Made by a program: the position numbers and the translations under genes. The notes beneath the pieces are model-generated. The model worked only from the letters and a program-made list of their open reading frames with translations. It was not told the DNA's origin and made no database searches. Below are positions 17,896 to 36,934 of a DNA stretch of 64,000 nt, one piece after another (positions within the stretch are counted from its first letter, which is position 1; every line of letters begins with the position of its first letter). The DNA is from a virus (lineage: Duplodnaviria > Caudoviricetes): positions 96,001 to 160,000 of IMG/VR virus record IMGVR_UViG_3300029288_000063; one strand, written 5' to 3'.

Positions 17896-17896
17896 A

Positions 17897-17972
17897 GGCG
17901 AGCGAACCCATGCGGCATGGGGACGGACTGCAAACCCGTTAAACTCTGGTTCGACTCCAGCGCTCGCTTCCA
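17897..17972 (+). tRNA. tRNA-Cys(GCA)
   Basis: Cloverleaf, U73, CCA. Confidence 0.8.
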
Positions 17973-17985
17973 TAAAGGGACGGTA

Positions 17986-18531: not shown

Positions 18532-18830
18532 AGATGTATATTCTGATAAAAAATGACTTGGCTGTTGGTCATTCGGTGTTGGCTGCCGCGCACGCTTCGT
18601 TGGCGTGCTATCTGAAGTTCCAGAACGACGAAAGAATGCGCCAGTGGGTGTCAGGCGTGTTTTACAAGGTTGTCTGTGTGGTGTCGCCTGAAGAGTTTGA
18701 GAGGGCGAAGGAGGTCGAGGACAATGTCGTCATGACGGAGTCGTCCCTTGGTGGTGCGGAAGTTGCTGTTGCGTTTTGTCCGAGAGAAGAATGGCCGAAG
18801 ATGTTCAGGTTTCTTCGGCTTTTGAAATAG
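18525..18830 (+). CDS. peptidyl-tRNA hydrolase, Pth2-like
   Basis: KMYILIKNDL..AAHAS..W..KVVC pattern. Confidence 0.7.
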   Translation: MVKMYILIKNDLAVGHSVLAAAHASLACYLKFQNDERMRQWVSGVFYKVVCVVSPEEFERAKEVEDNVVMTESSLGGAEVAVAFCPREEWPKMFRFLRLLK

Positions 18831-18833
18831 AAT

Positions 18834-18910
18834 GGTGGTATAGCTTAGTTGGCCGAAAGCACCGGCTTCATAAGCCGGTATCGGTGGTTCGAATCCACCT
18901 ACCACTACCA
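18834..18910 (+). tRNA. tRNA-Met(CAT), elongator-like
   Basis: Cloverleaf, CCA. Confidence 0.88.
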
Positions 18911-18916
18911 TAATTT

Positions 18917-19008
18917 TGCGGGGGAGTGAAACGGATTTCCCGAAAGGGAATAATCATTCAAGCCCCATAAGCTTGAGATAGTGGGTTCGACTCCCATCCC
19001 CGCGTCCA
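18917..19008 (+). tRNA. atypical tRNA(CAT) with hairpin inserted in the D-loop
   Basis: TTCCC-GAAA-GGGAA in D-loop; C33; CCA. Confidence 0.65.
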
Positions 19009-19029
19009 AATTGCAACGGAGGTTGTATA

Positions 19030-19266
19030 ATGGGTCATATGACGAAGGCGTCTGATTGTATTTGTTGCGTTTGTCATAAGGAAAAGGCTGTTGCCTTTTG
19101 GCCTATGGTTGATATCGACATTCCTGCCCATCCGTATTGTAAGAAGTGTTTGGATGAGGCACAGTTGAAGGTGATGATTCAGTTGGCAGAAACGGACTTT
19201 TATGGGTTGCCGAAGAAAACAAATTCACCGAAGAAGGCGAAAGCAAAGAAAAAGCGAGGTGGTTGA
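19030..19266 (+). CDS. small Zn-finger-like protein
   Basis: GGAGG RBS; CxxC..CxxC. Confidence 0.55.
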   Translation: MGHMTKASDCICCVCHKEKAVAFWPMVDIDIPAHPYCKKCLDEAQLKVMIQLAETDFYGLPKKTNSPKKAKAKKKRGG

Positions 19267-19359
19267 TGAAGTGGCTATTTAATATTGTTTTCCCGTTTGG
19301 GATTCCGTATTGATATCGCCAGCATAGCTCAATTGGTAGAGCACCTGCTTTGTTGTAAC

Positions 19360-19433
19360 GCTGGCATAGTTCAATGATAGAATAGTTGTCTTGTAAGCAT
19401 CAGACGATGGTTTGATTCCATCTGCCAGCTCCA
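19360..19433 (+). tRNA. tRNA-Thr(TGT), nested, divergent
   Basis: Cloverleaf with TTT T-loop and one anticodon-stem mismatch; CCA. Confidence 0.7.
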
Positions 19434-19506
19434 ACAAACAGAAACGCAGACCAAGTGACCAATTCTTTTATGGTCTCCATTCGAATAGCGTAGTCGGCTA
19501 TTTTGG

Positions 19507-20199
19507 ATGGAGGACAAGAGAATGTTCAAGTGCGAAAAGTGTGGTAAGGAGTTTGACAACGAGAGGTCGTTTAGTGGGCACAAAGGTGCCTGCGGGAAGA
19601 AAAAAGAGTGTCCTGTTTGTTGTCGGATGATAAGTGTTTCGAATTTTATTGCGCATGTGAAGTCGCATGAAAACGACAAGGCTTGTCCAGCGTGTGGTGG
19701 GGTGGTTCATGGTCGTGGACGCTTTTGCTCGAAAAGTTGTGCTGCCTCGGTGAACAATGTTGGTGTTGTTCGCAATGGGGTAAAAAAGAAAGACGCGTTT
19801 TGTTTAACGTGTGGAAAGATTTTGGTTCGACGTCAGGTTAAATATTGTTCAAATCATTGCCAACAAGAAAAGAAATATAGAGAATACATAGGTCGGTGGT
19901 TGATTGGAAAAGAAACAGGCAACATGGATGGTTGTATGAATATATCAAATTATGTTCGACGTTGGCTATACGAAACGAGGGGGAAAAGGTGTGAGGGGTG
20001 CGGGTGGGCGAGAAAACATTCGATGGACGGTTCGATTCCGATTCAAGTCGAGCACATTGATGGTAATGCTCAAAACACGACACCTGAAAACTTGAGGATA
20101 TTGTGTCCGAGTTGCCATAGTTTAACGTTGACCTTTGGAAACAGAAACAAGGGAAAGGGTCGATCAAAGAGGCGATCAAAGAGGTGTTCAAAAGAGTAA
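19507..20199 (+). CDS. Zn-finger HNH homing endonuclease
   Basis: Multiple CxxC; EHIDGN..N..NLRILCPSCH. Confidence 0.85.
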   Translation: MEDKRMFKCEKCGKEFDNERSFSGHKGACGKKKECPVCCRMISVSNFIAHVKSHENDKACPACGGVVHGRGRFCSKSCAASVNNVGVVRNGVKKKDAFCLTCGKILVRRQVKYCSNHCQQEKKYREYIGRWLIGKETGNMDGCMNISNYVRRWLYETRGKRCEGCGWARKHSMDGSIPIQVEHIDGNAQNTTPENLRILCPSCHSLTLTFGNRNKGKGRSKRRSKRCSKE

Positions 20200-20309
20200 G
20201 CAGGCGGTTGGGGGTTCGAGTCCCTCTGCTGGCTCCATAAAGAAGCTACTTTCCTTCATGAAAACGCCGATATGGCTCAGGAGGTACTCTACCTACTTGG
20301 ACAACAAAT

Positions 20310-20383
20310 GCTGGCATAGTTCAGTGGTAAAACAGATTCTTGGTAAGAATCAGACGAGGGTTCGATTCCCCCTGCCAGCTCCA
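20310..20383 (+). tRNA. tRNA-Thr(GGT)
   Basis: Cloverleaf, CCA; same lineage as nested Thr(TGT). Confidence 0.85.
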
Positions 20384-20517
20384 AATTGGACTGTTATGAA
20401 AAGATTGCATCATGACCCGGAAAACGGTATAAGTAAAAGGCAGTCGTTGTATGCCAAGAAGACCAGAGCTTGGCTCAGGGGTGTGATGTGTGTTTTGAAA
20501 AAAAAAGGAGAAAATGA

Positions 20518-21021
20518 ATGAGGGTTATTGACGCTCCCGAGTCGTTGTCAGATTTACCGCGCCCGGCAGTGTTCTTGGCGGGCGGGATTACCGGGTGTCC
20601 GGATTGGCAAAATAAGGTTATCGCAGGTCTGTCGGACCTTGACTTTGGGTGTGTCCTGAACCCGCGTCGGGCGAATTTTCCGATTCACGACCCCAATGCG
20701 GCGCGGGAACAAATCACTTGGGAGTTCAACGCCTTGCATAAGGCTGATTTGTTCTCGATGTGGTTTTGCAACACGGAGTCAGACCTACCGATTTGTTTTT
20801 ACGAGTTGGGTCGGTATGTCGCGATTCGGCAGGTAAACGTGCAGCTTGACCGTGTTCTTATTGGTGTTGAGACGGGGTTTAAGCGGTCACAGGATGTGTA
20901 TATTCAAATGGAATTGGTAAACAAGGGAATTTCGGACAACATTTTCTCATCGTTGGACGATTATATAGTGGCGCTTCGTGAGTTGGTGTTGAACTTTGTC
21001 TCGAACACAGTGTTCGAGTAA
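20518..21021 (+). CDS. nucleoside 2-deoxyribosyltransferase-like protein
   Basis: VFLAGGI..DWQ..NPRR..QITWE..YELG. Confidence 0.7.
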   Translation: MRVIDAPESLSDLPRPAVFLAGGITGCPDWQNKVIAGLSDLDFGCVLNPRRANFPIHDPNAAREQITWEFNALHKADLFSMWFCNTESDLPICFYELGRYVAIRQVNVQLDRVLIGVETGFKRSQDVYIQMELVNKGISDNIFSSLDDYIVALRELVLNFVSNTVFE

Positions 21022-21110
21022 ACTGGAGGGTTCTACCATGTTTAGCCTTTTGTGTTCGGAAGTCTTGGTGTTTCGGTGTTGAACTAAAACCAGAGAAAGG
21101 AGGATAACCG

Positions 21111-21620
21111 ATGAAGGTATTGCTTTTGAACCATTCGGAAGAAATTTTGGACGTGATCTCGTGGCAGCGTGCGGTGACGTTGTTGTTTTCGGGAAAGGCC
21201 CGGAAGCCGCATGGCTATGATGATGAGTACGAAATCAAGACCGTGTCCGGTGTTTTCCGGCTTCCGTCGGCTATTGTCCTCGTCTCGTATGTTCGGATTC
21301 CGTACAAGAAGGCGGCAGTCAACAAGGAAAACGTGTTGAAGCGTGACAAGTTCACCTGTCAATACTGTGGTAAGCATTTGACGATGTCATCCGGCACAAT
21401 CGACCACGTTCACCCGACATCTCGTGGCGGGCGGCATGAGTGGAAGAACGTTGTTGCTGCGTGCGCAAAGTGCAACAATAAGAAGGCGAATCAGCGTCCG
21501 GAAGAAGCCGGGATGGTTTTGTTGTCTCATCCGTCCGTGCCGACCCGCAACCTGATTGTTTTGACGGGTATAAATCCCCATACTCTTGGGACGTGGACGA
21601 GGTGGGTTGACCTTGGTTAA
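21111..21620 (+). CDS. HNH endonuclease (McrA-like)
   Basis: RD..CQYCG..TIDHVHP.SRGG..W.NVV.AC..CN..K. Confidence 0.9.
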   Translation: MKVLLLNHSEEILDVISWQRAVTLLFSGKARKPHGYDDEYEIKTVSGVFRLPSAIVLVSYVRIPYKKAAVNKENVLKRDKFTCQYCGKHLTMSSGTIDHVHPTSRGGRHEWKNVVAACAKCNNKKANQRPEEAGMVLLSHPSVPTRNLIVLTGINPHTLGTWTRWVDLG

Positions 21621-22037
21621 CGTGTGTGTGGTTTCGTAGATCAATAACACCCGTCGTGCCGTGTGGCGACGGGTGTTGTTTTAGGAGCCATCATGATTTT
21701 TTCGTCTCCAATAACCTGTCCACCCGAAACGACTGGTTCGGTTTCATACACTGTTTATTCTGGAGGGACAACATCGACGACCGAAACGACGTTTGTGGCG
21801 AGCAGTGATTGTTCGTGTTCGGCGGGTTGTTCGCGTTGTGCGGATTCGCATGAATATGTTCTGACTGTCTTAATGCCAGTTGAGGGTTATGAGGTTCCAG
21901 TCTTACCGAAAACAAAACACGATTCGTATAAAGGTCATCGTGCGGGGCATCCACGTAAAGTGCGGTCGTGGAACAAGATACACAAGCCATTCGGTGGTTA
22001 TGGATTCTTCCGTGGTTAAATGCGAAGAATCCATCTC

Positions 22038-22111
22038 GGGGCGTGCGTCCCGGTTGACCGGATGGGTCTTATAAACTCGTTGGCAGGGTTCAACTCCTTG
22101 ACGCCCTACCA
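22038..22111 (+). tRNA. tRNA-Ile(TAT), atypical
   Basis: CT-TAT-AA loop, T-arm, CCA; odd D-arm. Confidence 0.65.
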
Positions 22112-23251: not shown

Positions 23252-23473
23252 ATGATTGACAACCACACTGTTGGTTCTGTGAAACGCATTTCGCCGGTGT
23301 TGAATAGGAATGCTATTGTAAAGAGTGGTGGAGTCCTCCAACAGTCGGAGGAGGTTGGTTATGTTGTAAGGGAGAAAATCGGCGTTGGAGTATATAACCC
23401 ATCCGCGTTAAATCTGTTCTTAAAAAAAGAGTCTGAAGGGGCGTTGCCTGTTTATGATGAAGACCCGAATTGA
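23252..23473 (+). CDS. mini-protein made of two MCP-like segments
   Basis: GAGG RBS; local similarity to 4501-5361. Confidence 0.6.
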   Translation: MIDNHTVGSVKRISPVLNRNAIVKSGGVLQQSEEVGYVVREKIGVGVYNPSALNLFLKKESEGALPVYDEDPN

Positions 23474-25641
23474 AATTCTGTTATGAACTTGATATAGGAA
23501 AGCTGAATATGATCAGGAGAGTTCTTTTTTCGATAGTAGTGGTTGCTGCTATTTGCACTGTTGTTTTAGTGACGATATCAATGACTGTCGTCAAAAATGG
23601 ATTCTCTTCTGTAGATGAGGATCGGGTGATTGAATCCTCACACCTTGTTCGTTCTATCGTTCAAAGAGAATTGCTCGGTTTGGCCAGCACTGTTGGGGAT
23701 TGGTCACGGTGGGATGATGCTTGGGAGTATGTTAATCAAGACGGCAAAGATAGGTCTTTTGTCGAACAAAATATTGATCTCGCTTCACTATTACAGTTGC
23801 GCGTGTTTTATGTCATGTTTCTTGGACGGGATGGACATCCTATTTCCGAATTTGTTGTTCGTGACGGGGACATCTATGAGGTTCCGAATTCCGAGCTGTC
23901 CTTGGCGTCTATAGATGGTTTTCAATCGGCATCTGAACGGTGCATGCGCGGCGAGGTTGTGCAGGGTTTGTCTTGGATAGGAGACAAGATGTCCTTGGTG
24001 GCAATGTCGTCTATCTCTAAGTCGGACGGTTCGTGTGTCGGAAACGGTATGTTGGTTTTCTGTCGTGATGCGTCCGGTATGGTTTCGGAAATTAACAAGA
24101 CGTTTGAGTCGTTTTCGATATCCGGTGATTGTTCAAGCGAGATAATGAACGACCTCGTTATCAATACCTCCGATTCGAGCGTGTCTGGGACTTTTCTTGT
24201 TCCCAGTGTTGAGGGAGGGAAAAACTATCTCGCAAGCCTATCTGTTCCGAGCTTTTCCGAGTTGCAGGGCAACCGCATTATCCTTGTTTTCGTTTTTGCG
24301 AGTATAGGGTTTGTTTTCGTTGTTTCGATTGCGCTGTGGAAGGTTGTTGATAGGATGGTATTATCGAGGCTTTCTGTCACAATGTCCGCTGTCAAAGAGA
24401 TTGGTCGTTCTGCCGATGTGACAAAGAAGCTGCCCGGTGGTGAATGTTCTGATGAGTTTGGCGTTTTCATTCACAACTTGAACGATATGCTTGAATCTAT
24501 TCGCGTGTCAGAAGAAAAGACAAAAGAATCAGAAAATGCTTTAAAACGTTCTGAGCGAGTAACACTTCTTGGCAAATTCGCGGAGGGTATTGCGCACGAC
24601 CTGAATAACCTTTTGGCAATTATTAAGGGCTATGCGGACTCGTTGAAGTTTGCCGGTTCACTTTCTGAATCTCTCGTGCTGTGTGACAACATAAGTTCCA
24701 CAGTCGGAGAATGTACGGCTTTGATTGGTAAGATTTTGTCGTTTTCGAGGCGTGGTAATATCAACTTTGTGCCGGTTGATCTGCACCCATTGTTGGGTGA
24801 TATATGTTCGATGTTTCATTACGCCATAGAGAAAAAGAGTGTATGTTTTGAATCGGTTATGGGGGCGGAGAACAGTGTGGTTCATGGGAACAAGTCTGAA
24901 ATTCAAAATGCCATATTGAGTCTGTTGGTTAATGCCCGAGAGGCTGTTTCTGATAATGGTCATATCTTTATCAAATCAAGAAACGTTATCGACCCTGACG
25001 GTTTGTCTTCTGGTGAATATGTGGAGGTGGAGGTGAGTGATGACGGTGTTGGAATTCCTCCGTCGATTATGAAAAATCTTTTTGTTCCATTTCAAACAAC
25101 AAAGGAATATGGAAAGGGTCTTGGACTTTCTTTTGTTCATGGGACGGCGGAAAGACACAAAGGAAGGGTAAGTGTTTCCAGTATTCCCGGTAAAACATCT
25201 GTGCTGCTCTTGATTCCGTGCTCTGAAAAAAAGGCTAGTGTTCCGGAGAAAAACAGCGTTATGAGACATAAGACTCCGTGTGTTGTGCATGTCGAAGATG
25301 AGGCGGCCATTCGTGAAATCGTTAAGTTGCAGCTTGAGGATGATGGGTTTTGTGTGAAATCTTTTGCGCATGGTGATGGTGCGATTAGTTATGTTCGTGA
25401 ACACAAGCAAGATGTTGACTTTGCGATTCTCGACTTCGCGGTTCCTCCTGTGGATGGTGTTTACATCTTTCATGAGATGAGAAAGATTATACCAACTCTT
25501 CCAGTTGCGTTTATGACTGGTTTTTGTGACGCTAGGGCTGAAGACTTGCGTGCCGAGGGGGCGGTCGGTGTTTTCGAGAAACCAATCAATTTCAAGTCAG
25601 TTCTTAGTCTTCTGAACGATATACTTGGAAAGCGTGGGTAG
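23470..25641 (+). CDS. hybrid sensor histidine kinase (CHASE4-HAMP-HisKA-HATPase-REC)
   Basis: DWSRWDD, AHDLNN, N/G1/F/G2 boxes, receiver EDE..D..KP. Confidence 0.9.
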   Translation: MKFCYELDIGKLNMIRRVLFSIVVVAAICTVVLVTISMTVVKNGFSSVDEDRVIESSHLVRSIVQRELLGLASTVGDWSRWDDAWEYVNQDGKDRSFVEQNIDLASLLQLRVFYVMFLGRDGHPISEFVVRDGDIYEVPNSELSLASIDGFQSASERCMRGEVVQGLSWIGDKMSLVAMSSISKSDGSCVGNGMLVFCRDASGMVSEINKTFESFSISGDCSSEIMNDLVINTSDSSVSGTFLVPSVEGGKNYLASLSVPSFSELQGNRIILVFVFASIGFVFVVSIALWKVVDRMVLSRLSVTMSAVKEIGRSADVTKKLPGGECSDEFGVFIHNLNDMLESIRVSEEKTKESENALKRSERVTLLGKFAEGIAHDLNNLLAIIKGYADSLKFAGSLSESLVLCDNISSTVGECTALIGKILSFSRRGNINFVPVDLHPLLGDICSMFHYAIEKKSVCFESVMGAENSVVHGNKSEIQNAILSLLVNAREAVSDNGHIFIKSRNVIDPDGLSSGEYVEVEVSDDGVGIPPSIMKNLFVPFQTTKEYGKGLGLSFVHGTAERHKGRVSVSSIPGKTSVLLLIPCSEKKASVPEKNSVMRHKTPCVVHVEDEAAIREIVKLQLEDDGFCVKSFAHGDGAISYVREHKQDVDFAILDFAVPPVDGVYIFHEMRKIIPTLPVAFMTGFCDARAEDLRAEGAVGVFEKPINFKSVLSLLNDILGKRG

Positions 25642-25706
25642 CTCAATGGCAGAGCGAGGGCTTCTAAAGCCCTGCGTTATGGGTTCGAGTCCCATCCTAC
25701 GCACCA
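25632..25706 (+). tRNA. amber suppressor tRNA (CTA)
   Basis: Canonical cloverleaf, loop TT-CTA-AA, CCA. Confidence 0.88.
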
Positions 25707-27558: not shown

Positions 27559-27691
27559 TTCGCCATGTACCCGCCCGTGAAAAGGCGGGTACATTTTTAT
27601 TATTGGCTTGTTGTTGGAAGAGAATGTCTCTTGGTGCACTTTGTTCGTTGGGAATAAATGCTGTTGTGATGTTTTCGAAAAAATATATTGA

Positions 27692-27736
27692 TTTTTTCCA
27701 GATTTTTGTTGCGCCTACGATGTTTGAATGTATAGT
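27692..27736 (+). promoter_or_regulatory. sigma70-like promoter heading tRNA block 2
   Basis: TTGCGC-16-TATAGT; 21-nt identity with 9783. Confidence 0.7.
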
Positions 27737-27773
27737 GGGTCATGTGTGGTAAATTACTTTTATGGAGTCTGTC

Positions 27774-27863
27774 ATGAATAAGTTTGCATTGCTTCCAGTC
27801 CTGCCGGTGTTTGATGCGGCGGCCTATGAATGGCTGACGGCGGGTAGGGAGCTTTGCGGATAA
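27774..27863 (+). CDS. attenuator leader peptide 2 (29 aa)
   Basis: GGAG RBS; codons match block-2 tRNAs. Confidence 0.8.
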   Translation: MNKFALLPVLPVFDAAAYEWLTAGRELCG

Positions 27864-27929
27864 AACAGATTTCAACAAATCCGTAAAACACCTGACCCCG
27901 CCGAGAAGTTCCGGCGGGTTTTTTGTTTT
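27838..27929 (+). promoter_or_regulatory. antiterminator/terminator pair of attenuator 2
   Basis: 27838-27861 pairs with 27879-27903; terminator 27897-27903/27912-27918 plus T-tract. Confidence 0.75.
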
Positions 27930-27958
27930 GCGGTGATGCGGGCATAGTTCCTGCAAGT

Positions 27959-27970
27959 GGTCTTTGACAA
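27959..27970 (+). promoter_or_regulatory. boxA antitermination site
   Basis: GGTCTTTGACAA. Confidence 0.65.
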
Positions 27971-27996
27971 TCGAGTGGCCAAGAAAAGAATTATCC

Positions 27997-28081
27997 GGTG
28001 TGGGTGGCGCTTCGGAAGCGCGGCGGGCTGTAAACTCGTTCCCTTATGGGCAAAGAGGTTCGACTCCTCTCCACACCACCA
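27997..28081 (+). tRNA. tRNA-Tyr(GTA)
   Basis: Long variable arm, CCA. Confidence 0.82.
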
Positions 28082-28084
28082 AAT

Positions 28085-28160
<76 letters not shown>

Positions 28161-28190
28161 AATTCAATCCGGGCGTGTGCCCGGTGGAAT

Positions 28191-28267
28191 AGGCGTTTAG
28201 CTCAGGAGGCTAGAGCGTGTGCGTCACAAGCACGAGGTCGCTGGTTCGAATCCAGCATCGCCTACCA
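28191..28267 (+). tRNA. tRNA-Val(CAC)
   Basis: Cloverleaf, CCA. Confidence 0.88.
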
Positions 28268-28278
28268 TAGTTTTTTTT

Positions 28279-28433
28279 GCAGCACTCTTCAGTATGGAGT
28301 TACTTCCTTTCAAACCGAAAATGTGGGTTCGATTCCCACACCTGATGCCGCAACACACGACGGTTCGCCGTCCAGTCGGGTTCGTCTAATGGTAGGACTC
28401 GGGCGCAAGTCTCCATGCGTTCTTTGGTGCTGT
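28279..28433 (+). ncRNA. YrlA-like Y RNA, copy 6
   Basis: Conserved frame plus permuted T/D arms. Confidence 0.7.
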
Positions 28434-28441
28434 TTTTTCAT

Positions 28442-28516
28442 GTCCCGCTCGTCTAGCGGCTAGGACGACAGCTTTTCAAGCTGTAAACCGGAGTTCGATT
28501 CTCCGGCGGGATGCCA
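28442..28516 (+). tRNA. tRNA-Glu(TTC)
   Basis: Cloverleaf, CCA. Confidence 0.9.
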
Positions 28517-28523
28517 AATTCAT

Positions 28524-28610
28524 GCGGGTATGCTGGAATGGCAGACAGGTTGCGTTGAGAGCGCAATGGACGAATTGTCCGTGAGGGTTCAAGTCCCTCT
28601 ATCCGCACCA
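28524..28610 (+). tRNA. tRNA-Leu(GAG)
   Basis: Long variable arm, CCA. Confidence 0.9.
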
Positions 28611-28615
28611 AATTT

Positions 28616-28814
28616 ACCAGTCGTCTGAGGAAGCTCGGGACTGCACCGCGAAAACGGAGGAGGATTGTATAATCTGATTGGACTCCGGAGGCAGCAACCC
28701 CAAATAGGCCCGGAGCGGGAGCGCGGCGTGTTGAAGGGCGGGTTGGGGGCTTAGACCAATGCACGGTTGAAAAACAGAATCCCGGCTACGTAGAACTGTG
28801 CGCGGTCGACTGGT
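28616..28814 (+). ncRNA. rnpB: miniature circularly permuted RNase P RNA (catalytic domain)
   Basis: CR-I GAGGAAGCTCGGGA and CR-V ACAGAATCCCGGCTA form P4; P2, P3, P5, P6, P7, P15 and P16 can be assigned. Confidence 0.8.
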
Positions 28815-28820
28815 TATTAT

Positions 28821-28897
28821 GTCTCGGTAGGCGAATGGTTGAAGCCGTCACCCCTTCAAGGTGAAAATTACGGGTTCGAATCCCGTCCGAGATACCA
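28821..28897 (+). tRNA. tRNA-Glu(TTC), divergent (C33)
   Basis: Cloverleaf, CCA. Confidence 0.8.
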
Positions 28898-28985
28898 CAA
28901 GAAAAGGGAAAGCCCCCCTATGGGAACCATGAAGGCCAAATGGGTTCTCGCAGGCTTGACAACCGGAGAGTACGGTGCCAATGAT

Positions 28986-29061
28986 GTCCCGCTCGTCTAG
29001 TGGTCTAGGATGGCAGATTCTCAGTCTGCGGACAGGGGTTCGAATCCCCTGCGGGATACCA
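28986..29061 (+). tRNA. tRNA-Glu(CTC)
   Basis: Cloverleaf, CCA. Confidence 0.9.
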
Positions 29062-29125
29062 AGATTTCCCTTCGGGTTGACTGGAGGTTGTTCGTACCGC
29101 TGTCGAGGTATGGCGGCGGTAGTTT

Positions 29126-29201
29126 GGAAGGTTAGCCTACGTGGTCACGGCGTCTGCCTGAAGAGCAGAAGAAGTCGGTTCGATTCCGACACCTTCCACC
29201 A
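29126..29201 (+). tRNA. tRNA-Phe(GAA), divergent
   Basis: Cloverleaf, CCA. Confidence 0.82.
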
Positions 29202-29204
29202 TAA

Positions 29205-29290
29205 GCGGGTGTGCTGAAATGGCATACAGGTCGCGCTCAGAACGCGATGCCCGTAAGGGCGTGTGGGTTCGACTCCCTCCATCCGCACCA
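29205..29290 (+). tRNA. tRNA-Leu(CAG)
   Basis: Long variable arm, CCA. Confidence 0.9.
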
Positions 29291-29298
29291 AAAACAAT

Positions 29299-29387
29299 GC
29301 GAGTGTGCTGGAACTGGCATACAGGTCTGTCTCAAAAGCAGATGGGTGAAAAATCCCGTGTGGGTTCGACTCCCACCGCTCGCACCA
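29299..29387 (+). tRNA. tRNA-Leu(CAA)
   Basis: Long variable arm, CCA. Confidence 0.9.
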
Positions 29388-29395
29388 AATATATG

Positions 29396-29544
29396 ATGAC
29401 GCGCTTCGGTAGGGAGATACTTCCATAAGGCTGGTGTCCCTCGGGACGTGTGGGTTCGAGTCCCACAGACTTAACGAAAGTTGGGCGATGGCGAAATGGC
29501 AGACGCACCGGAAAAAAGAAACTCCTTGCGACTTTTGGCGTCAT
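29396..29544 (+). ncRNA. YrlA-like Y RNA, copy 7 (Leu-type module)
   Basis: Conserved frame; variable arm, T-arm and Leu-like D-arm. Confidence 0.7.
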
Positions 29545-29555
29545 TTTTGAATTTT

Positions 29556-29718
29556 CGGCACGCTTCAGTGATGGGTTACTTCTCACCCAATGAGAGAGGT
29601 CGTAGGGTTCGAATCCCTACCCGCCCGGCCATGAAGGCTTTCGATGAGAGCCTTCATACTTCGGGCGGTAGCTCAGTGGTAGAGCGCTACAACTAGCCTG
29701 TTGCGACTTTTGGTGCCG
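29556..29718 (+). ncRNA. YrlA-like Y RNA, copy 8
   Basis: Frame nearly identical to copy 3. Confidence 0.75.
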
Positions 29719-29735
29719 TTTGTTGCGTTTTATGT

Positions 29736-29810
29736 AGTCTCGTCGTTCAAAGGCTAGGATTCGGGATTGTCTATCCTGAGATGCGGGTTCGAGTCCCGTC
29801 GAGACTGCCA
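29736..29810 (+). tRNA. tRNA-Asp(GTC), divergent
   Basis: Loop TT-GTC-TA, CCA. Confidence 0.8.
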
Positions 29811-29813
29811 AAT

Positions 29814-29890
29814 GGACACGTAGCTCAGTTGGTTAGAGCGCTGCCCTGTCACGGCAGAGGTCACCGGTTCGAGTCCGGTCGTGTCCGCCA
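29814..29890 (+). tRNA. tRNA-Asp(GTC)
   Basis: Cloverleaf, CCA. Confidence 0.92.
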
Positions 29891-29898
29891 AAATTTAC

Positions 29899-29974
29899 TG
29901 TGTGGTAGCTCAGTTGGTAGAGCACGGCCCTGAAAAGGCCGGTGTCACCGGTTCGACCCCGGTTCCCACAACCA
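29899..29974 (+). tRNA. tRNA-Phe(GAA)
   Basis: Cloverleaf, CCA. Confidence 0.88.
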
Positions 29975-30060
29975 AATATAGGCGTATAGCTCAATTGGTA
30001 GAGCACCGGTTCCAAAAACCTTCGGTTTGATAAATAATTTTATAATCTCGTGTCTGTTGA

Positions 30061-30600
30061 ATGGAGACAGACATGAGGAAGACAAAGTGGACAGATGAAG
30101 AATTGTCGTTGTATGTTGCCGAGTCGTTTGGTTTTTCTGACCTTTTGAGAAAGTTAAAACTTTCAGTATCTAGTGGAAATTACAAGACAATAAGAAGACG
30201 TATAGAAAGTCTTTGTTTGGATACTAGGCATTGGACTGGAAAGTCTCAATGTGGAGATCGAAACCCAAGTTTTCGTCACAGAATTCCGCTTGAACAGATT
30301 TTGGTAGAGAATGGGTTTTATAGGAATCTGCCAAGATTGAAACAGAGGTTGATTAAAGAGGGTTTGTTAGAAAACAAGTGTGCTATTTGCGGACTTAGTT
30401 CTGTGTGGAATAATAAGAAAATTGTTATGATTTTGGATCATGTAAATGGTGAATCATTTGATCATAGATTTGAAAATTTGAGACTTGTTTGTCCGAATTG
30501 TAATAGTCAGATTGATACTTTTGCTGGAAGAAACAAGAAGAAAAAACGAACGGATGCAGCAAGTGGGTGTTGCGGTCAGACTCCAAATCTGACGTCTTAG
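30061..30600 (+). CDS. HNH homing endonuclease
   Basis: CAICG..LDHVNG..DHRFENLRLVCPNCNSQ; AT-rich. Confidence 0.88.
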   Translation: METDMRKTKWTDEELSLYVAESFGFSDLLRKLKLSVSSGNYKTIRRRIESLCLDTRHWTGKSQCGDRNPSFRHRIPLEQILVENGFYRNLPRLKQRLIKEGLLENKCAICGLSSVWNNKKIVMILDHVNGESFDHRFENLRLVCPNCNSQIDTFAGRNKKKKRTDAASGCCGQTPNLTS

Positions 30601-30627
30601 CGGGTTCGATTCCTGTCATCCGTGCCA
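30550..30627 (+). tRNA. tRNA-Trp(CCA), nested, divergent
   Basis: ACGGATG/CATCCGT acceptor, CT-CCA-AA loop, GCCA. Confidence 0.8.
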
Positions 30628-30685
30628 ATCTTGTAATCCGTTCAAAACCGGCGGTTGGGGGTTCGAGTCCCTCTGCGCCTGCCAT

Positions 30686-30759
30686 AGTCGTGTCGCTTAA
30701 TGGTAAAGCGTCTCCTTGACGTGGAGAAGCTGAAGGTTCGATTCCTTCCATGACTACCA
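30686..30759 (+). tRNA. tRNA-Val(GAC)
   Basis: Cloverleaf, CCA. Confidence 0.85.
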
Positions 30760-30767
30760 TATTCAAA

Positions 30768-30846
30768 CGGGGCGTAGCTCAGCTTGGTTGAGAGCGCGTG
30801 TTTCGGGTACACGAGGTCGCAAGTTCAAATCTTGTCGCCCCGACCA
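30768..30846 (+). tRNA. tRNA-Pro(CGG), variant
   Basis: Cloverleaf, CCA. Confidence 0.85.
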
Positions 30847-30964
30847 AATTATGAACCCTATGCACATGACCGGACACTTGTGTGTAGGAGCAACGACGCC
30901 CATTATGGAGAGCGGTGGGTGTAGCCGAAAGGCAGTGCGGTAAAACGCCGAAGCTCCTGTGAAT

Positions 30965-31041
30965 CGGGGTGTGGCTCAGCTTGGTAGAGCGCCGCGTTCG
31001 GGACGCGGAGGTCGGAGGTTCAAATCCTCTCACCCCGACCA
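30965..31041 (+). tRNA. tRNA-Pro(CGG)
   Basis: Cloverleaf, CCA. Confidence 0.92.
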
Positions 31042-31102
31042 ATTTCAATGTATATCGGGTTTCCGGTATACTGTGGTATACATGGGTAGAAACGACTATA
31101 AT

Positions 31103-31179
31103 CGGACTGTGGCTCAGTTTGGTAGAGCGCGTGACTGGGGGTCACGAGGCCGCAGGTTCAAATCCTGTCAGTCCGACCA
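31103..31179 (+). tRNA. tRNA-Pro(GGG)
   Basis: Cloverleaf, CCA. Confidence 0.92.
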
Positions 31180-31248
31180 AAATTATTTCTTCGTTGAGCT
31201 TTTTCATGTCGCCGCGATAGGTTTGTAAGGTATTATATTGTAGGTGTT

Positions 31249-31956
31249 TTGAAAAGGACGAAGATTATGCCGCCTCCTGTTGTGAAATGTTGCATCTGTG
31301 GTGAAGAGGTTCTCAAGGCTCAAACCTATGCTATTGCAGGCGGTCGTGCCTGCAAGAAGCATGAAGGCGTTGTTGAGCAATCGCAGCAGATTCAACAGAA
31401 AGCAATCGACGATAAGTCGAGGCAGCGTGCCGCAGAAGACGAGCGTGAACGTCGGCGTGAAGAGCGAATGAACATGCCGCATGCTTCAATGGAAGCAAAC
31501 CTGTCGTTTGCGAGGGATAACTGTTGGTGCTGTGGTCGTGTTGGATTGGAACACAGCATGTTTATGCAGCTCCAGTTGGCTGCGATGGAAAAGGCTCAGA
31601 ATGAGAATATCAATGTGTTTGGTGAGCTTGTTGGAGACCACGCTTTCAAAAACATGTTGCTTGCCGTGTTAAAGCGGCTTGGTGCTGAGTGTGTTTTCAA
31701 AAGGTTTGACCTGAACGATGAGATGTTTGAGCGGTACGTTCAGTGGGAAGCGCGGATAGACCATCGAGTGCGGGATATTGTTCGCTTTGGTCGTGTAATT
31801 CAGCTTTGTGGTGATTGTCAAAACGGCACAGGTATCAAGTTTGACTTCGAATCCATCATTCCGAAGGTGCCGCTGCAAACGCTCTTATTGGTTGGTTCTG
31901 CTTATGAGAACAGTGACTTCCATAAGCATGTTCAAGAGATTGCGAAAAATATATAA
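31249..31956 (+). CDS. hypothetical Zn-binding protein
   Basis: 235-aa ORF with CxxC motifs. Confidence 0.6.
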   Translation: MKRTKIMPPPVVKCCICGEEVLKAQTYAIAGGRACKKHEGVVEQSQQIQQKAIDDKSRQRAAEDERERRREERMNMPHASMEANLSFARDNCWCCGRVGLEHSMFMQLQLAAMEKAQNENINVFGELVGDHAFKNMLLAVLKRLGAECVFKRFDLNDEMFERYVQWEARIDHRVRDIVRFGRVIQLCGDCQNGTGIKFDFESIIPKVPLQTLLLVGSAYENSDFHKHVQEIAKNI

Positions 31957-31957
31957 C

Positions 31958-32035
31958 GGGCGCGTAGCATAGCTGGTCGAATGCGCTTGCTTTACAAGCA
32001 AGAGACCGAAGGTTCAAATCCTTCCGTGCCTACCA
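31958..32035 (+). tRNA. tRNA-Val(TAC)
   Basis: Cloverleaf, CCA. Confidence 0.88.
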
Positions 32036-32038
32036 AAT

Positions 32039-32114
32039 GGGGTCGTAGCTCAACTGGGAGAGCGTCTGCATGGCATGCAGAAGGTAGAGGGTTCGAATCC
32101 CTCCGGCTCCACCA
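32039..32114 (+). tRNA. tRNA-Ala(GGC)
   Basis: G3-U70, CCA. Confidence 0.92.
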
Positions 32115-32716
32115 AATTCAAGGTGGTTGGGTTGGCATAGATTACCCTGCCACAAGAGTTTTCCTCTGAGGAACACGTTTCTTATGAGTGATATTGATTA
32201 TCTTCGTCATACTTTGTCTGGTCGAAACATGGTAACGAGGAATCCCGACCTATGCGTGTGCGCTTTTGCGTGTGCGTGTGTGTATCGGGATGGTTCGCGG
32301 TTTCGGTGCCGTATAATAGACGAGGTAAACAAGGAAATTCAAAGTAGGATTGACGACTACAATCAGGCGGTTGAGCGGTGTCGCAGGGAAAAGCAGATTA
32401 CCGGGAAAGAGTGGGGTGCTTGAGAGTTTTATGAGAAATGCCCACAACATCTATTATTCCGAGGACGACTTGTTCCCTGAACATCGTGTTCCGCCGTCCT
32501 GTCCGTATCTTACCGAGTTTGTGATTCTCAGCAACCCCGAGGTAAACGATTTGCTTGTGTCGGGGGTTTTGTTGTGAGATATTTTGAGCACGCCAAGGTG
32601 AATTTGGTTGTCGCTTTCAAGGCCGCCCTGTTGTGTGTGTTTCATGTCGCACATGCCTTTGTCCCGTGTCGGTGGACCGAGCATGATTGGTGGGGGTTGA
32701 ACCTTACAAAAGATTC

Positions 32717-32793
32717 CGGAGAGTAGTTCAGCTTGGTAGAACGCCTGCTTTGGGAGCAGGAGGCCGCAGGTTCGAATCCTGTCTCTCCGACCA
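32717..32793 (+). tRNA. tRNA-Pro(TGG)
   Basis: Cloverleaf, CCA. Confidence 0.92.
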
Positions 32794-32820
32794 AATTCAA
32801 ACACCCTCAAGGAGTTGGCG

Positions 32821-33087
32821 ATGTATGATGAGGAAATAAACAAAATGGTGGAAGAATTGTTTGACGCTTCCACAATGGAAGGGTCGGAGACAGGCGAGAC
32901 GTGGAGTGCGCTTGCGCAGTTTGCGAATGCCCTACATTCGGATTTCGTCTCAGAGGAGTTTGTTGAAGCCCTCAAGAAAGAGATTCGTCGGCAGCATGAT
33001 GACTTGAAGGCTAATTTCCGGATTGTCGAAGAAGAACGTCGCGAAGAGGTTGTCAGGAAGTCCAGAACGCTGGAATGTATCGCGTAG
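32821..33087 (+). CDS. hypothetical protein
   Basis: AAGGAG RBS. Confidence 0.55.
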   Translation: MYDEEINKMVEELFDASTMEGSETGETWSALAQFANALHSDFVSEEFVEALKKEIRRQHDDLKANFRIVEEERREEVVRKSRTLECIA

Positions 33088-33142
33088 CGGCGAGTGGCGG
33101 AATAGGAAGATGTAAGGGACTTAAAATCCTATCTCTCCGCCA
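33087..33142 (+). pseudogene. tRNA-Leu(TAA) remnant
   Basis: D-arm and anticodon present, T-arm deleted. Confidence 0.55.
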
Positions 33143-33237
33143 AATTATAATCCTGTGGAGAAACTATGTCTGTTTTTGATAGGTCACCGGATTGGTTGAA
33201 AAAACTCATCGGTTGGATTTGTGGTCCGTAGGGGTTC

Positions 33238-34080
33238 GTGATGTCCGTGCGCTGGTTGCTTGAAAAAGACGTGTTTTCTGAAGACTTGGAGCCGCTGAAA
33301 CAAGAGATTGTTCGTCAGGGGCACTCGTTCACAGAGATGGGGTACATCCCGTTTGGTGGCGGCGAATATGAGGACATTGTAGGCAAAGATTGTACCCTGT
33401 TTTATGGGTCGTTGAATCTCGCGTTGACTCTGTCGCGGCTGCCGTGCCCGCCGGTTATCTTTTGTGACCGGCCGAACTACGAATGCACGAAGTATTACGC
33501 CTATTTTGGCGAGTACCTGTTGAATCAGAAATATGTCATGCTGCCATTCTCCGAGTTGCGTCGTCGAAAGGATTGGTTGTTCGACAAGATTGGTGAGAAT
33601 GGGAGTATGTTTGTTCGCCCGAGTTCAGGGGCGAAAATCTTTACCGGCATGGTGATTCAAAACGACTCTTTTGAGCACGACTACAAGTTGCTTGGATTCT
33701 ATGATGTCGCGCCGCACGCTATGGTCGTTGTTGGTCAGCCTCATAATATCGTTCGTGAGTGGCGTTTGGTTATCGCGGATGACGAGGTTGTTGCCGGAAG
33801 CAAGTATCACGATGGAACCCTGAGCTTGATGTATGAGGGGTTTCCTGAGTCTGTTGGAGAGTTGGCGAATCGTATCTTGTCCGAAACGTCGTATCGTCCT
33901 GACCCCGTGTGGACTATGGATTTTTGCGAAACGAAAGATGGCAGGGTTCATCTCTTAGAAATCGGCGGGTTTAGCTGTGCCGGTTTGTACTTATGCGAGA
34001 TGGCTCCTATTGTCTCAAACGTCTCACGAATCGCAGAAAGCGTGTTTAACGGTGAATATGATGGGCGCGTGGCGGAATAG
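33238..34080 (+). CDS. ATP-grasp domain protein (DUF4343/R2K-like)
   Basis: FVRP..K.FTG, EWR, MD..LLEIG..S.AGLY. Confidence 0.75.
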   Translation: MMSVRWLLEKDVFSEDLEPLKQEIVRQGHSFTEMGYIPFGGGEYEDIVGKDCTLFYGSLNLALTLSRLPCPPVIFCDRPNYECTKYYAYFGEYLLNQKYVMLPFSELRRRKDWLFDKIGENGSMFVRPSSGAKIFTGMVIQNDSFEHDYKLLGFYDVAPHAMVVVGQPHNIVREWRLVIADDEVVAGSKYHDGTLSLMYEGFPESVGELANRILSETSYRPDPVWTMDFCETKDGRVHLLEIGGFSCAGLYLCEMAPIVSNVSRIAESVFNGEYDGRVAE

Positions 34081-34149
34081 GCAGACGTAAGGGACTTAAA
34101 ATCACTTATCCATAGTGTCGTGTGGGTTCGAGTCCCACCGCGCCTAACA
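34063..34149 (+). tRNA. tRNA-Leu(TAA), possibly degenerate
   Basis: Anticodon-stem mismatch; ends ACA. Confidence 0.6.
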
Positions 34150-34164
34150 ACTAGGAGTGTGTTT

Positions 34165-34509
34165 ATGTCTGTTGACGGATGTTCGTGTGGTGGCGAGTGC
34201 GGGTGCAAGGGGGAAGAAAATATCCGTCGTGCCAAGCCCGGTGAGCTTGTGCGTTGTCGGTGGTGCGAAGAACTGCCGTTGATTATTTGGGATAAGGATT
34301 ACAACAATCTGAAGATTTGTTGTGATGGCGGCAACGGTGCAAAAGAGTGTTCGGCGTATCCGTCCACATCAAATGGAGGGTTTGGGCCGTCAACGGGACA
34401 TATTGTCAGTAGGCAATGGTCTGTCCTCAATTCGGAGTTGTCGCCACAAGACGCAAGGGATAGTGAAAAGCTCCACGAAGAGGTAAGTAGGAAACTTGAA
34501 GAAAAATAG
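34165..34509 (+). CDS. Cys-rich hypothetical protein
   Basis: AGGAG RBS. Confidence 0.5.
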   Translation: MSVDGCSCGGECGCKGEENIRRAKPGELVRCRWCEELPLIIWDKDYNNLKICCDGGNGAKECSAYPSTSNGGFGPSTGHIVSRQWSVLNSELSPQDARDSEKLHEEVSRKLEEK

Positions 34510-34556
34510 CCATTTTTTCTTCTGTAAACGATGTCGGTTCAAAGGAGAAAAACAAA

Positions 34557-34880
34557 ATGGCTCATAAGTTATTCACAAACGAAGTTAGAACCCGCGTGGG
34601 CAATTCAAAAAACTGGCGTCTTGCTTGTGAGTTGCGGTTTGAGGGTTCTGGTTCGTGGTGTTTTGATTGCCGTGAGTCTGGTTTCGAGATTGATGTTGCG
34701 TTCTGTGATGATGGTAATGTGTCGGCGTCCGTGTTTGCGCTTGGTGATGACGAGCAGGAGCCGATTTCATGTGTCGAACGGAAGGTATGTACAGAGGCGC
34801 AGCTTGGCACCGTGATTTCTGAAGCCGTGAAAAACGCGGTTAAGAGTCCGATGCTGAAGCATCGTCTCCTTGAGGTTTGA
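34557..34880 (+). CDS. hypothetical protein
   Basis: AAGGAG RBS. Confidence 0.55.
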   Translation: MAHKLFTNEVRTRVGNSKNWRLACELRFEGSGSWCFDCRESGFEIDVAFCDDGNVSASVFALGDDEQEPISCVERKVCTEAQLGTVISEAVKNAVKSPMLKHRLLEV

Positions 34881-35006
34881 GGTTAGTAACCGAGTACGAT
34901 TAGCCGTCCGAAAGGTGAAGTTCCCTCGGCGAAATTGAGTGAAACAGGTTCGGGTGGCACCCGTTCAATGTCGCGATAAAGTAGCCGAAAACCATTTTTG
35001 ACATAT

Positions 35007-35081
35007 TGCGGGGTGGAGCAGTGGCAGCTCGTCAGCCTCATAAGCTGAAGGTCGAGGGTTCGAATCCCTCCTCCGCTACCA
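35007..35081 (+). tRNA. initiator-like tRNA-fMet(CAT)
   Basis: Unpaired 1-72, A11-U24, CCA. Confidence 0.85.
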
Positions 35082-35257
35082 ATTTTTCTCGTGCGTCGGC
35101 ACAGTGGACCCCACAAAGCAGTTCCCTGTGTCTAGTGTATGGTTGCATGTGGGTGTAGCCAAGATGGGTCACAGTCCCGTCGGCACGAGAGTTTTTTTCT
35201 ATGAGTGTGGTATGACCTTTTTTTGATTTGTGCCATAGGAAGAGGAGGTATCTTCCT

Positions 35258-36283
35258 ATGGTGCAAAAGGTTGTATGTCGTATTGAAGATTTGTCTGAGA
35301 AGGTCGGTTGGTATATTAGCCGTCCTGTTTTGGATTTTGAAACTTCAAGGTTGTTAATTGCCGTCAACAAGCAAGTTACGCTTGATATGGCGGAGGCTCT
35401 TGCACGACGTGGTGTTGATGTTGTTCAGGTGACTCCAGAGCCGATAGATGTTGAAAACATCGAGCCGGGAAAAGATGGCTCGATGATGGCGAAAAAGTCC
35501 AAAAAGAAGTTGATGGATTCTTTGGCTGAAATAACGATGTCTGTTCGTGGTAGACGGAAGACGGTAAACATGAAGAAATCGTTGTCGAACTTTGTTCTTG
35601 GCAACGTAGAACGAGCAATCATAGGTGTAATAGAGTCAATAAGTAACAATCCAACGTCGTGTGTGTATTTGAGTATGATTGAGGATGAAGATCCGTATTT
35701 GATTCATCATGGTGCAAACACAACGTATCTTGCGTTGTGCCTGATAAACAAGTCGCCTTATGTGAGGATGTTATTTCGAGACCCGGAAAAGGGTTTGCCA
35801 AAATTCAATGCGCCGGGTATGTCGTGTGACTATTCGGATTACGTTCCGCTTGGTATGGCGGCGATGCTGCATGACATTGGCAAAGTTTTCATGCTGGGTA
35901 CGGTGAAGGAAAACAAGAGGTTGACGGATGCAGACCAAGAGTCTTGGGAAACAATCCGTAAACACCCGAAGCTTGGCCACGATGTTTTGTTTGGGAAAAA
36001 GATAGACTCTCATGGGTTGTTGGGTATAAAATATCACCATGAGAACTTTGATGGGTCTGGTTATCCCTTTGGGATAAAGGGGTATAAGATTCATCTATAT
36101 GCGCGGATTTTGCGGGTCGTGGATAGTTTCGACGCGGCGACCTCAAAGCGTCCGGGCAGGGAACAGAAGTCTCCGGAAGAGGTGTGCGTCGAGATGTTGA
36201 AATTAGCGCGGACGCATTATGACCCGGAGATTTGTGCGCACTTTGTCGCGATGATTTTAGGTAAGGAAATTCCGGGGTCGTAG
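35258..36283 (+). CDS. HD-GYP domain phosphodiesterase
   Basis: LHDIGK..HP..G..HHENFDGSGYP..VVDSFDA. Confidence 0.88.
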   Translation: MVQKVVCRIEDLSEKVGWYISRPVLDFETSRLLIAVNKQVTLDMAEALARRGVDVVQVTPEPIDVENIEPGKDGSMMAKKSKKKLMDSLAEITMSVRGRRKTVNMKKSLSNFVLGNVERAIIGVIESISNNPTSCVYLSMIEDEDPYLIHHGANTTYLALCLINKSPYVRMLFRDPEKGLPKFNAPGMSCDYSDYVPLGMAAMLHDIGKVFMLGTVKENKRLTDADQESWETIRKHPKLGHDVLFGKKIDSHGLLGIKYHHENFDGSGYPFGIKGYKIHLYARILRVVDSFDAATSKRPGREQKSPEEVCVEMLKLARTHYDPEICAHFVAMILGKEIPGS

Positions 36284-36349
36284 CTCAACTGGAAGAGCGT
36301 CTGCTTTGCAAGCAGAAGGTCAGGGGTTCGAATCCCCTCGGCTCCACCA
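36274..36349 (+). tRNA. tRNA-Ala(TGC)
   Basis: G3-U70, CCA. Confidence 0.92.
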
Positions 36350-36395
36350 AATTCAAAGTTGTTTGGTTTGTTCTTTCGGTTATTTTTTGTGATAT

Positions 36396-36481
36396 GGGTA
36401 AATGGCGAAATGGCAGACGCGCAAGGTTTAGGACCTTGTAGTCGAAAGACTGTGAGGGTTCAAGTCCCTCTTTGCCCACCA
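36396..36481 (+). tRNA. tRNA-Leu(TAG)
   Basis: Long variable arm, CCA. Confidence 0.9.
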
Positions 36482-36696
36482 CAACAAAGGATACACATAT
36501 GAACGTTTTCTGTAATGAATGTAAGTATTTGACAGATGATCTTCGTTGTGATTCGCCGTGCAACCTCCAAATAAAACTTTTTGGATTGGTTCTTTATGGA
36601 GGAGTTAAACCGTCGGTGCAAAATATGTATAATGACTGTGTGTTGTTTGAACGTGGAAAGGTTCCCCAAAAGGAATCTCGTTAAAATCTTCGAATA

Positions 36697-36782
36697 GGTC
36701 AAGTGGCGGAACGGCATACGCGGCAGACTCAAAATCTGCTGGTCGCAAGATCGTGAGGGTTCAAGTCCCTCCTTGACCACCA
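36697..36782 (+). tRNA. tRNA-Leu(CAA), second copy
   Basis: Long variable arm, CCA. Confidence 0.9.
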
Positions 36783-36793
36783 TTTTTCATCTT

Positions 36794-36878
36794 GGGCGAG
36801 TGGCGGAATCGGCAGACGCACGGGATTTAAAATCCCGTATCTTAAGATGTGCGGGTTCAAGTCCCGCCTCGCCCACCA
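36794..36878 (+). tRNA. tRNA-Leu(TAA)
   Basis: Long variable arm, CCA. Confidence 0.9.
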
Positions 36879-36934
36879 ATAAGATATGCTTTTTTTATAT
36901 CCCTCCTAAATGTGTCGTGTGGAGGGGAAATGCC

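Follow-up and report, generated by a model that had tools for sequence, protein, structure and literature searches.

The window analyzed here, a stretch of 64,000 nucleotides, comprises bases 96001–160000 of a 253-kb IMG/VR virus record from an uncultured phage. The record was judged 75% complete, and the G+C content of the window is 49%. Comparison with GenBank phages returned matches at the tRNA genes only and no close relative among them. ARAGORN identified 55 tRNA genes and one tmRNA in the window, every one on the + strand and confirmed by Rfam, and just two further tRNA-like genes were detected in the rest of the record. A scan of positions 9000–39000 at Rfam gathering scores found nothing beyond these tRNAs and the tmRNA. 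The tRNA genes are arranged as follows:

10455 to 22111, + strand: tRNA block 1, with only Lys, Asn, Ile, Arg, Gly, His, Ser, Met, Thr, Cys, and Gln tRNAs
25632, + strand: lone amber-suppressor-type tRNA, grouped with block 1
27997–36878, + strand: tRNA block 2, 27 genes for Tyr, Ala, Val, Glu, Leu, Phe, Asp, Trp, and Pro tRNAs plus one Met tRNA (ARAGORN, Rfam)

A few protein genes are interspersed among the tRNA genes of block 2. When codons were assigned to anticodons by standard wobble rules, the block-1 set (24 distinct anticodons) was found to read 34 codons and the block-2 set (20 distinct anticodons) 27, which sum to all 61 sense codons.

Several other features of the neighborhood were recorded. 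A 723-amino-acid hybrid histidine kinase with CHASE4 sensor, HisKA, HATPase, and receiver domains is encoded between the tRNA blocks (23470–25706), and the 3′ end of its gene is overlapped by the lone tRNA, whose CTA anticodon would read the amber stop. The tmRNA lies just past block 2 at 37990–38334 and specifies the tag peptide ANDNVRLAA; another phage considered below, G001, likewise has a tmRNA, sited between its two tRNA blocks. The array and the DNA just past it (33238–40586) also encode an ATP-grasp (R2K) protein, an HD-domain protein, and an RNA ligase, in what looks like a tRNA repair or maintenance neighborhood. LAGLIDADG homing-endonuclease domains occur at 5524–7512, 51151–52806, and 56888–59074, where inteins split a uracil-DNA glycosylase-family protein and a RecA homolog. 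No RNase P family match was obtained at 28616–28814 at the Rfam gathering score, a model that a permuted RNA could escape.

Leader cassettes ahead of the two tRNA blocks

The region immediately upstream of block 2 contains a short open reading frame (ORF) flanked by transcription and translation signals:

27699–27736, + strand: predicted cassette promoter, made up of a shared upstream element, a −35-like hexamer at 27709–27714, and a −10-like hexamer at 27731–27736 (16-nt spacer)
27764–27767, + strand: Shine–Dalgarno sequence GGAG, six bases 5′ of the ATG, read from the sequence
27774–27863, + strand: leader ORF (leader 2) of 29 codons plus TAA, with the ATG at 27774 and the TAA at 27861–27863
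27783–27836, + strand: core of the leader, codons 4–21, delimited by anticodon comparison with block 2
27897–27929, + strand: intrinsic terminator of seven G–C pairs (27897–27903 with 27912–27918), an 8-nt loop, and a T-run at 27919–27929
27937–27955, + strand: boxB-like hairpin from the hairpin scan, directly 5′ of boxA
27959–27974, + strand: boxA of the rRNA-operon type, the 16-mer GGTCTTTGACAATCGA, located by exact-match scans

The end of the leader ORF is separated by 134 nt from the first of the downstream genes that it is proposed to regulate, a tRNA-Tyr gene starting at 27997, after the hairpin and boxA. No protein gene follows the terminator. Within block 2, the terminator scan of the + strand found only weaker terminator-like hairpins of at most four G–C pairs.

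The match between the codons of leader 2 and the tRNAs of block 2 is far beyond chance. A first-pass annotation, prepared from the sequence alone, had claimed that codons 4–21 are all read by block-2 tRNAs. These codons are exactly as it listed them, and 18 of 18 are decoded by tRNAs of the 27997–36878 array. The spread that it described was also confirmed, with three Ala, three Leu, two Pro, and two Val isoacceptors represented along with Phe, Asp, Tyr, Glu, and Trp. Over the entire ORF, 21 of 29 codons are decoded by block-2 tRNAs and 16 of the 20 block-2 anticodons are touched.

The 18-codon run is the longest among 2,958 ORFs of 20–70 codons in the six frames of the 253-kb genome, where the runner-up has 14. 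Random draws from phage codon usage gave a run of at least 18 with P = 1e-5, and at least 16 distinct block-2 anticodons are reached with P = 4.5e-5 to 7e-5 under the codon-usage null. Among 13,802 windows of 28 codons taken within long ORFs, none contained such a run and one had such anticodon coverage. The remaining five frames over the same bases match block 2 at only 4–8 of 17–18 codons, indicating that base composition is not the cause of the match. Preference for U-ending wobble codons in the leader is the same as in the genome, and no Rfam match to the leader was found at E ≤ 10 in positions 27600–28000.

A second cassette precedes block 1:

9790–10073, + strand: paralogous cassette 1, with the same promoter, a 42-codon leader, and a terminator
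9878–10006, + strand: leader 1, 42 codons, unrelated in sequence to leader 2 and written in block-1 codons

The first 14 bases of the promoter are identical in both cassettes, as are the terminator 3′ arm and T-run. The 28-nt promoter core is present in two copies in the window (9800 and 27709), which are also the only two in the 253-kb genome, and the set of promoter core, terminator arm, and boxA occurs exactly twice in 253 kb, heading each tRNA block. Cassette 1 has the layout of cassette 2, with a hairpin of like loop at 10329–10345 located 5′ of a boxA at 10351–10366, and block 1 begins at 10455.

Leader 1 has 34 of its 42 codons in block 1 and covers 21 of 24 block-1 anticodons (P 6e-5 to 7e-5). 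Neither leader matches the opposite block: leader 1 reaches only 5 of the 20 block-2 anticodons (P > 0.98), and leader 2 only 7 of the 24 in block 1 (P > 0.98). With the peptide sequence held fixed, synonymous codon choice extends the isoacceptor spread above expectation in leader 1 (P = 0.011) and reaches more isoacceptors than expected in leader 2 (P = 0.074). A 59-codon ORF (10086–10265) lies between the cassette-1 terminator and the first block-1 tRNA. A second strong terminator-like hairpin with a T-run is found at ~10392–10450, just 5′ of tRNA-Lys, and might pass only polymerase that has been modified at boxA.

The boxA 16-mer resembles the E. coli boxA of rRNA operons. There are exactly two copies of it in the 253-kb genome, one heading each tRNA block. 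Bacterial genomes were scanned for the exact 16-mer, and it was found in the 16S–23S spacer, 110–150 nt before the 23S rRNA, in 8 of 8 rRNA-bearing loci examined. These loci belong to Acidobacteriota (including Pyrinomonadaceae) and Myxococcota (L044, L046, L047, L086, L088, L092, L099, and L112), and their boxA copies are likewise preceded by hairpins. Because the 16-mer sits in the 16S–23S spacers of rRNA-bearing loci, its sequence identifies it as a true rRNA-operon boxA to which Nus factors are predicted to bind, and this identity hints at Acidobacteriota or Myxococcota as the host phylum. The 16-mer also occurs beside the tRNA arrays of other phages. It is not always linked to a leader, as at two loci (L013 and L015) it directly follows a protein gene. 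Many exact copies were also seen in Brevundimonas genomes, where an rRNA gene was present at 0 of 5 loci checked. Genome position 67722, 28,278 bases before the window start, has a boxA-like 16-mer (three mismatches) that lies ~500 nt upstream of an isolated tRNA-Met at genome position 68230.

Alternative folds of the leader transcript

Folding of the leader transcript delimits three segments upstream of and into the terminator:

27782–27806, + strand: region 1 (anti-antiterminator), codons 4–11, which pairs with region 2 in the untranslated leader in minimum-energy folds
27838–27861, + strand: region 2, of which 27838–27844 is complementary to the terminator 5′ arm and 27853–27861 is the 5′ arm of an inner hairpin
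27879–27903, + strand: region 3, of which 27879–27887 is the 3′ arm of the inner hairpin and 27897–27903 is the terminator 5′ arm

Region 2 overlaps leader codons 22–29 and the stop codon. Its heptamer at 27838–27844 (codons 22–24) repeats the terminator 3′ arm and can therefore pair with the terminator 5′ arm. The first-pass annotation had named two pairings as the antiterminator and described them as competing with the terminator. Both exist, the heptamer helix (27838–27844 with 27897–27903) and the inner hairpin (27853–27861 with 27879–27887, including one G–U pair). However, the inner hairpin is not itself a competitor of the terminator but stacks inside the antiterminator. Folding yields the classical topology of trp-type attenuators, with three competing pairings (1:2, 2:3, and 3:4); when 2:3 forms, neither 1:2 nor 3:4 can.

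The effect of a translating ribosome was simulated by masking a 28-nt footprint, moving it codon by codon, and then folding to equilibrium. The whole untranslated leader folds with region 1 paired to region 2 and with the terminator formed (P(terminator) = 0.95). When the A site is at codons 3–6 or 11–12, the antiterminator wins in the masked folds (P(antiterminator) 0.5–0.9), and it also wins, within the same probability range, at codons 13–18 if RNA behind the ribosome is barred from pairing across it. From codon 19 to the stop (19–30), the terminator is restored. Equilibrium folding is ambiguous at codons 7–10, where a second copy of the G/C-rich motif at 27820–27825 competes and the terminator may stay formed. 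In this model, the antiterminator arm would be hidden by a ribosome halted at codons 19–21 (Glu, Trp, Leu), and so not all 18 core codons need signal.

Shuffle tests give a measure of how unusual these folds are. When the 61 nt before the terminator were dinucleotide-shuffled, 3.3% of the shuffles suppressed the terminator equally well, and 2% of shuffled 5′ parts kept the terminator equally well in the corresponding test of the anti-antiterminator. The values for cassette 1 are <0.001 for the antiterminator and 0.04 for the anti-antiterminator. Its equilibrium profile is less clean than that of cassette 2 because its terminator is very stable.

Relatives that could reveal covariation in the helices were sought, and none was found. 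No IMG/VR relatives were obtained for either flanking ORF, the ORF 5′ of the leader matched only itself among 5.8 billion proteins, and the cassette promoter pattern returned no IMG/VR matches. Five metagenome matches to the terminator-arm pattern were taken as chance, none being accompanied by tRNAs or boxA. As no relative conserves the block-2 cassette, the helices are put forward on the folding and shuffle results, without covariation support.

Leaders ahead of tRNA blocks in other phages

Searches with boxA and the RNA ligase, in which the leaders were not used as queries, led to three other IMG/VR phages (G001, G003, and G006) with seven further leaders ahead of their tRNA blocks. G001 is a complete genome of 210 kb whose RNA ligase is 52% identical to that of our phage. 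Directly 5′ of its 12-tRNA block is a 28-codon ORF with a terminator, and this ORF covers 11 of the 12 anticodons of its own block (P = 0.0009) and 5 of 15 in the other block. G003 (96 kb) and G006 (133 kb) are related to one another and have three cassettes each, at loci that include L036/L037 in G003 and L279/L280 in G006. Each cassette consists of a sigma-70-like promoter, a short ORF, and a terminator, with boxA after some of them.

Own-block coverage is 5/6, 12/12, and 9/11 in G003 and 8/8, 10/12, and 8/8 in G006. Across the seven leaders, P ranges from <1e-5 to 0.014 for the leader’s own block, and all values for other blocks of the same phage exceed 0.4. Leader and array also vary together. 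In G003, the block that includes an Arg(acg) tRNA follows a leader with three CGC codons, and its G006 counterpart is without either the tRNA or the codons; a Cys tRNA and a Cys codon occur together in G006 only. A run in one G006 leader consists solely of Leu, Ser, Cys, and Tyr codons, and the block that follows is one of Leu, Cys, Ser, and Tyr tRNAs. Among the comparative arguments for selection on the codon match, this co-variation of leader and array, seen in leaders of unrelated sequence, is the strongest.

Like ours, the cassettes of these phages combine a promoter and a terminator with a short ORF whose codons cover the anticodons of the block behind it, and boxA is often present as well. 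They differ in their unrelated leader sequences and in the partition of tRNAs between blocks. In G001, G003, and G006, strong terminators persist in the minimum-energy folds and no clear antiterminator was found, so that support for the hairpin switch comes from the two cassettes of our phage only. Cultured relatives of the G003 cassette were sought and none was found. The best-scoring small ORF for block A of G001 was rejected as chance because it lies inside a longer gene in another frame. G002, a relative reached through its RNA ligase, was also set aside; other genes lie scattered among its tRNAs, and a cassette was not seen at the contig end. In G004, a leader with all 20 amino acids precedes an array of 31 anticodons, a marginal match (P = 0.045).

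A probable attenuator of tRNA genes and its alternatives

We consider it likely that the block-2 cassette is a ribosome-mediated, leader-peptide transcription attenuator gating the second tRNA operon, with negative feedback on tRNA supply. The attenuator reading of the first-pass annotation is supported by the codon match in the one frame led by a Shine–Dalgarno sequence, the complementarity to the terminator arm, region 1, the tRNA genes downstream, and the twin cassette. In the mechanism that we infer from these parts and from the modeled folds, transcription from the cassette promoter would begin near 27740, and the GGAG–ATG would be bound by a ribosome. If charged block-2 tRNAs are plentiful, the ribosome should reach the last codons or the stop and cover region 2, the terminator at 27897–27929 would form, and the transcript would end 5′ of the tRNA genes. 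If any of the sampled tRNAs is scarce, the ribosome would be halted before the last third of the leader, masking region 1 and freeing region 2 to pair with the terminator 5′ arm. With the terminator blocked, polymerase would transcribe the hairpin and boxA and then the whole array. A leader left untranslated would fold region 1 onto region 2, again favoring termination.

Polymerase that has passed boxA is probably made resistant to termination by host Nus factors. Placement of boxA 3′ of the terminator makes sense in such a scheme because polymerase would acquire this resistance only after the attenuation decision. The predicted net effect is that block 2 is made when its codons are decoded slowly, and the twin cassette would do the same for block 1. 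Its purpose may be to match tRNA supply to demand or to replace host tRNAs lost in infection. Because most of the tRNA species have just one codon in the leader, stalling should be weaker than in classical leaders, where the codons are in tandem.

The same parts could instead report amino-acid supply or general translation capacity, not the amount of phage tRNA, and serve as a starvation or timing gate for the array. A stalled ribosome is blind to the difference between a missing and an uncharged tRNA, and the sensor cannot tell lack of tRNA from lack of amino acid because host tRNAs read the same codons. The phage tRNA set reads all 61 sense codons, so the host pool matters too, and the folding results are compatible with either signal. 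However, extra tRNA does not relieve amino-acid starvation, and the strict own-block matching of nine leaders together with the excess isoacceptor spread argues that tRNA species are what is sampled. We regard this different signal as unlikely. A leader without any regulatory role, a chance ORF beside an ordinary terminator, might be expected somewhere in a genome with 2,958 small ORFs and with 30 terminator-like sites in 19 kb against 20.5 expected. Yet the joint improbability of the codon run, its frame specificity, the reciprocal twin cassette, and the recurrence in other phages makes this extremely improbable.

The ORF might also encode a functional small hydrophobic peptide, its codon match being a by-product of peptide chemistry. 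The core is indeed rich in Leu, Ala, Val, Pro, and Phe, the amino acids of block 2 are mostly hydrophobic or acidic, and in other systems some leader peptides are known to act in their own right once liberated (PMC7968998). Against such a by-product, none of the 13,802 windows from long phage ORFs attains a comparable run, the last codons are constrained by RNA pairing, and leader 1, despite being polar and basic, is just as good a match to block 1. The peptides encoded by the leaders of G001, G003, and G006 differ widely in chemistry, and every one of these leaders matches its own block; we judge the peptide explanation very improbable. Transcription of the array from its own promoter overlapping boxA would leave the cassette as a separate short unit, producing a small RNA or peptide and ending at an ordinary terminator. 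This proposal draws on a 10-of-12 consensus match at 27964–27991 (−35-like motif at 27964, −10-like motif at 27986), in which the −35-like TTGACA lies inside boxA. But cassette 1 does not conserve the −10 part, tRNAs start only 12–15 nt past the motif in G003, G006, and L015, which is too close, and the same 16-mer is found inside bacterial rRNA spacers, where it is transcribed. Such a promoter would also leave the codon match unexplained, and it seems rather improbable.

The attenuator that we favor has clear counterparts among enterobacterial systems. As in thr (Thr, Ile), ilvGMEDA (Ile, Leu, Val), trpL, hisL, pheL, and leuL, a Shine–Dalgarno-led short ORF with regulatory codons is followed by an intrinsic terminator. 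The antiterminator shares the terminator 5′ arm, an upstream segment blocks the antiterminator if the leader is untranslated, and the position of the ribosome would decide between them. In contrast, the enterobacterial attenuators control biosynthetic enzymes, whereas the phage cassette would control tRNA genes. Their leaders have tandem codons for 1–3 amino acids, whereas the phage leader samples ~16 isoacceptors for nine amino acids, mostly once. The phage cassette also has boxA after its terminator and shows neither sequence similarity to these attenuators nor a match to an Rfam leader family. Classical attenuators precede amino-acid biosynthesis or synthetase genes, and what lies downstream here is a hairpin, boxA, and 27 tRNA genes. 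The tRNA-gene target, the sampling of many isoacceptors once each, and the coupling to boxA thus differ from the thr and ilv attenuators and are new relative to them.

Other terminator/antiterminator switches that tune the translation apparatus by tRNA charging are pheST, with its pheM leader, and the T-box riboswitches. The former encodes a synthetase and senses one amino acid, whereas the phage product would be the sensed molecule itself. T-boxes bind uncharged tRNA directly, without a ribosome, unlike the phage leader. The phage leader is not a T-box riboswitch, no T-box match having been obtained from Rfam at the gathering score in 9000–39000 or at E ≤ 10 in 27600–28000. The arrangement of a hairpin followed by boxA is shared with the boxB–boxA of rRNA operons (NusB/NusE, NusA, NusG, SuhB) and with lambda nut sites. 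Unlike in rRNA operons, the phage boxA heads a tRNA array just past a putatively regulated terminator, so that, judging from the order of elements, the decision would precede modification of polymerase. Searches of full-text literature, in a collection with few subscription journals, turned up no description of tRNA genes or phage tRNA arrays being controlled by leader-peptide attenuation.

Proposals for why phages carry tRNA genes and how they use them include compensation for codon usage and replacement of host tRNAs that are degraded or cleaved during infection. If the attenuator reading is correct, phages would gauge the supply of tRNAs and adjust it separately for each block. Attenuation would then extend from the amino-acid operons of textbooks to stable-RNA genes, and the order of parts would appear designed, with the attenuator deciding first and boxA then making the decision irreversible. 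The cassettes could also serve as compact sensors for single tRNA species. More generally, large phages may possess a closed-loop tRNA homeostat, a widespread class in which each array is gated by a codon-panel leader that polls its own charged species and a host rRNA antitermination signal is placed just behind the gate; on this broader proposal our judgment is evenly divided. We hypothesize that such a homeostat would switch on a tRNA set when infection, a codon-usage mismatch, or a host tRNA-cleaving defense depletes those species. If so, it would represent a widespread and so far undescribed regulation of stable-RNA genes by translation.
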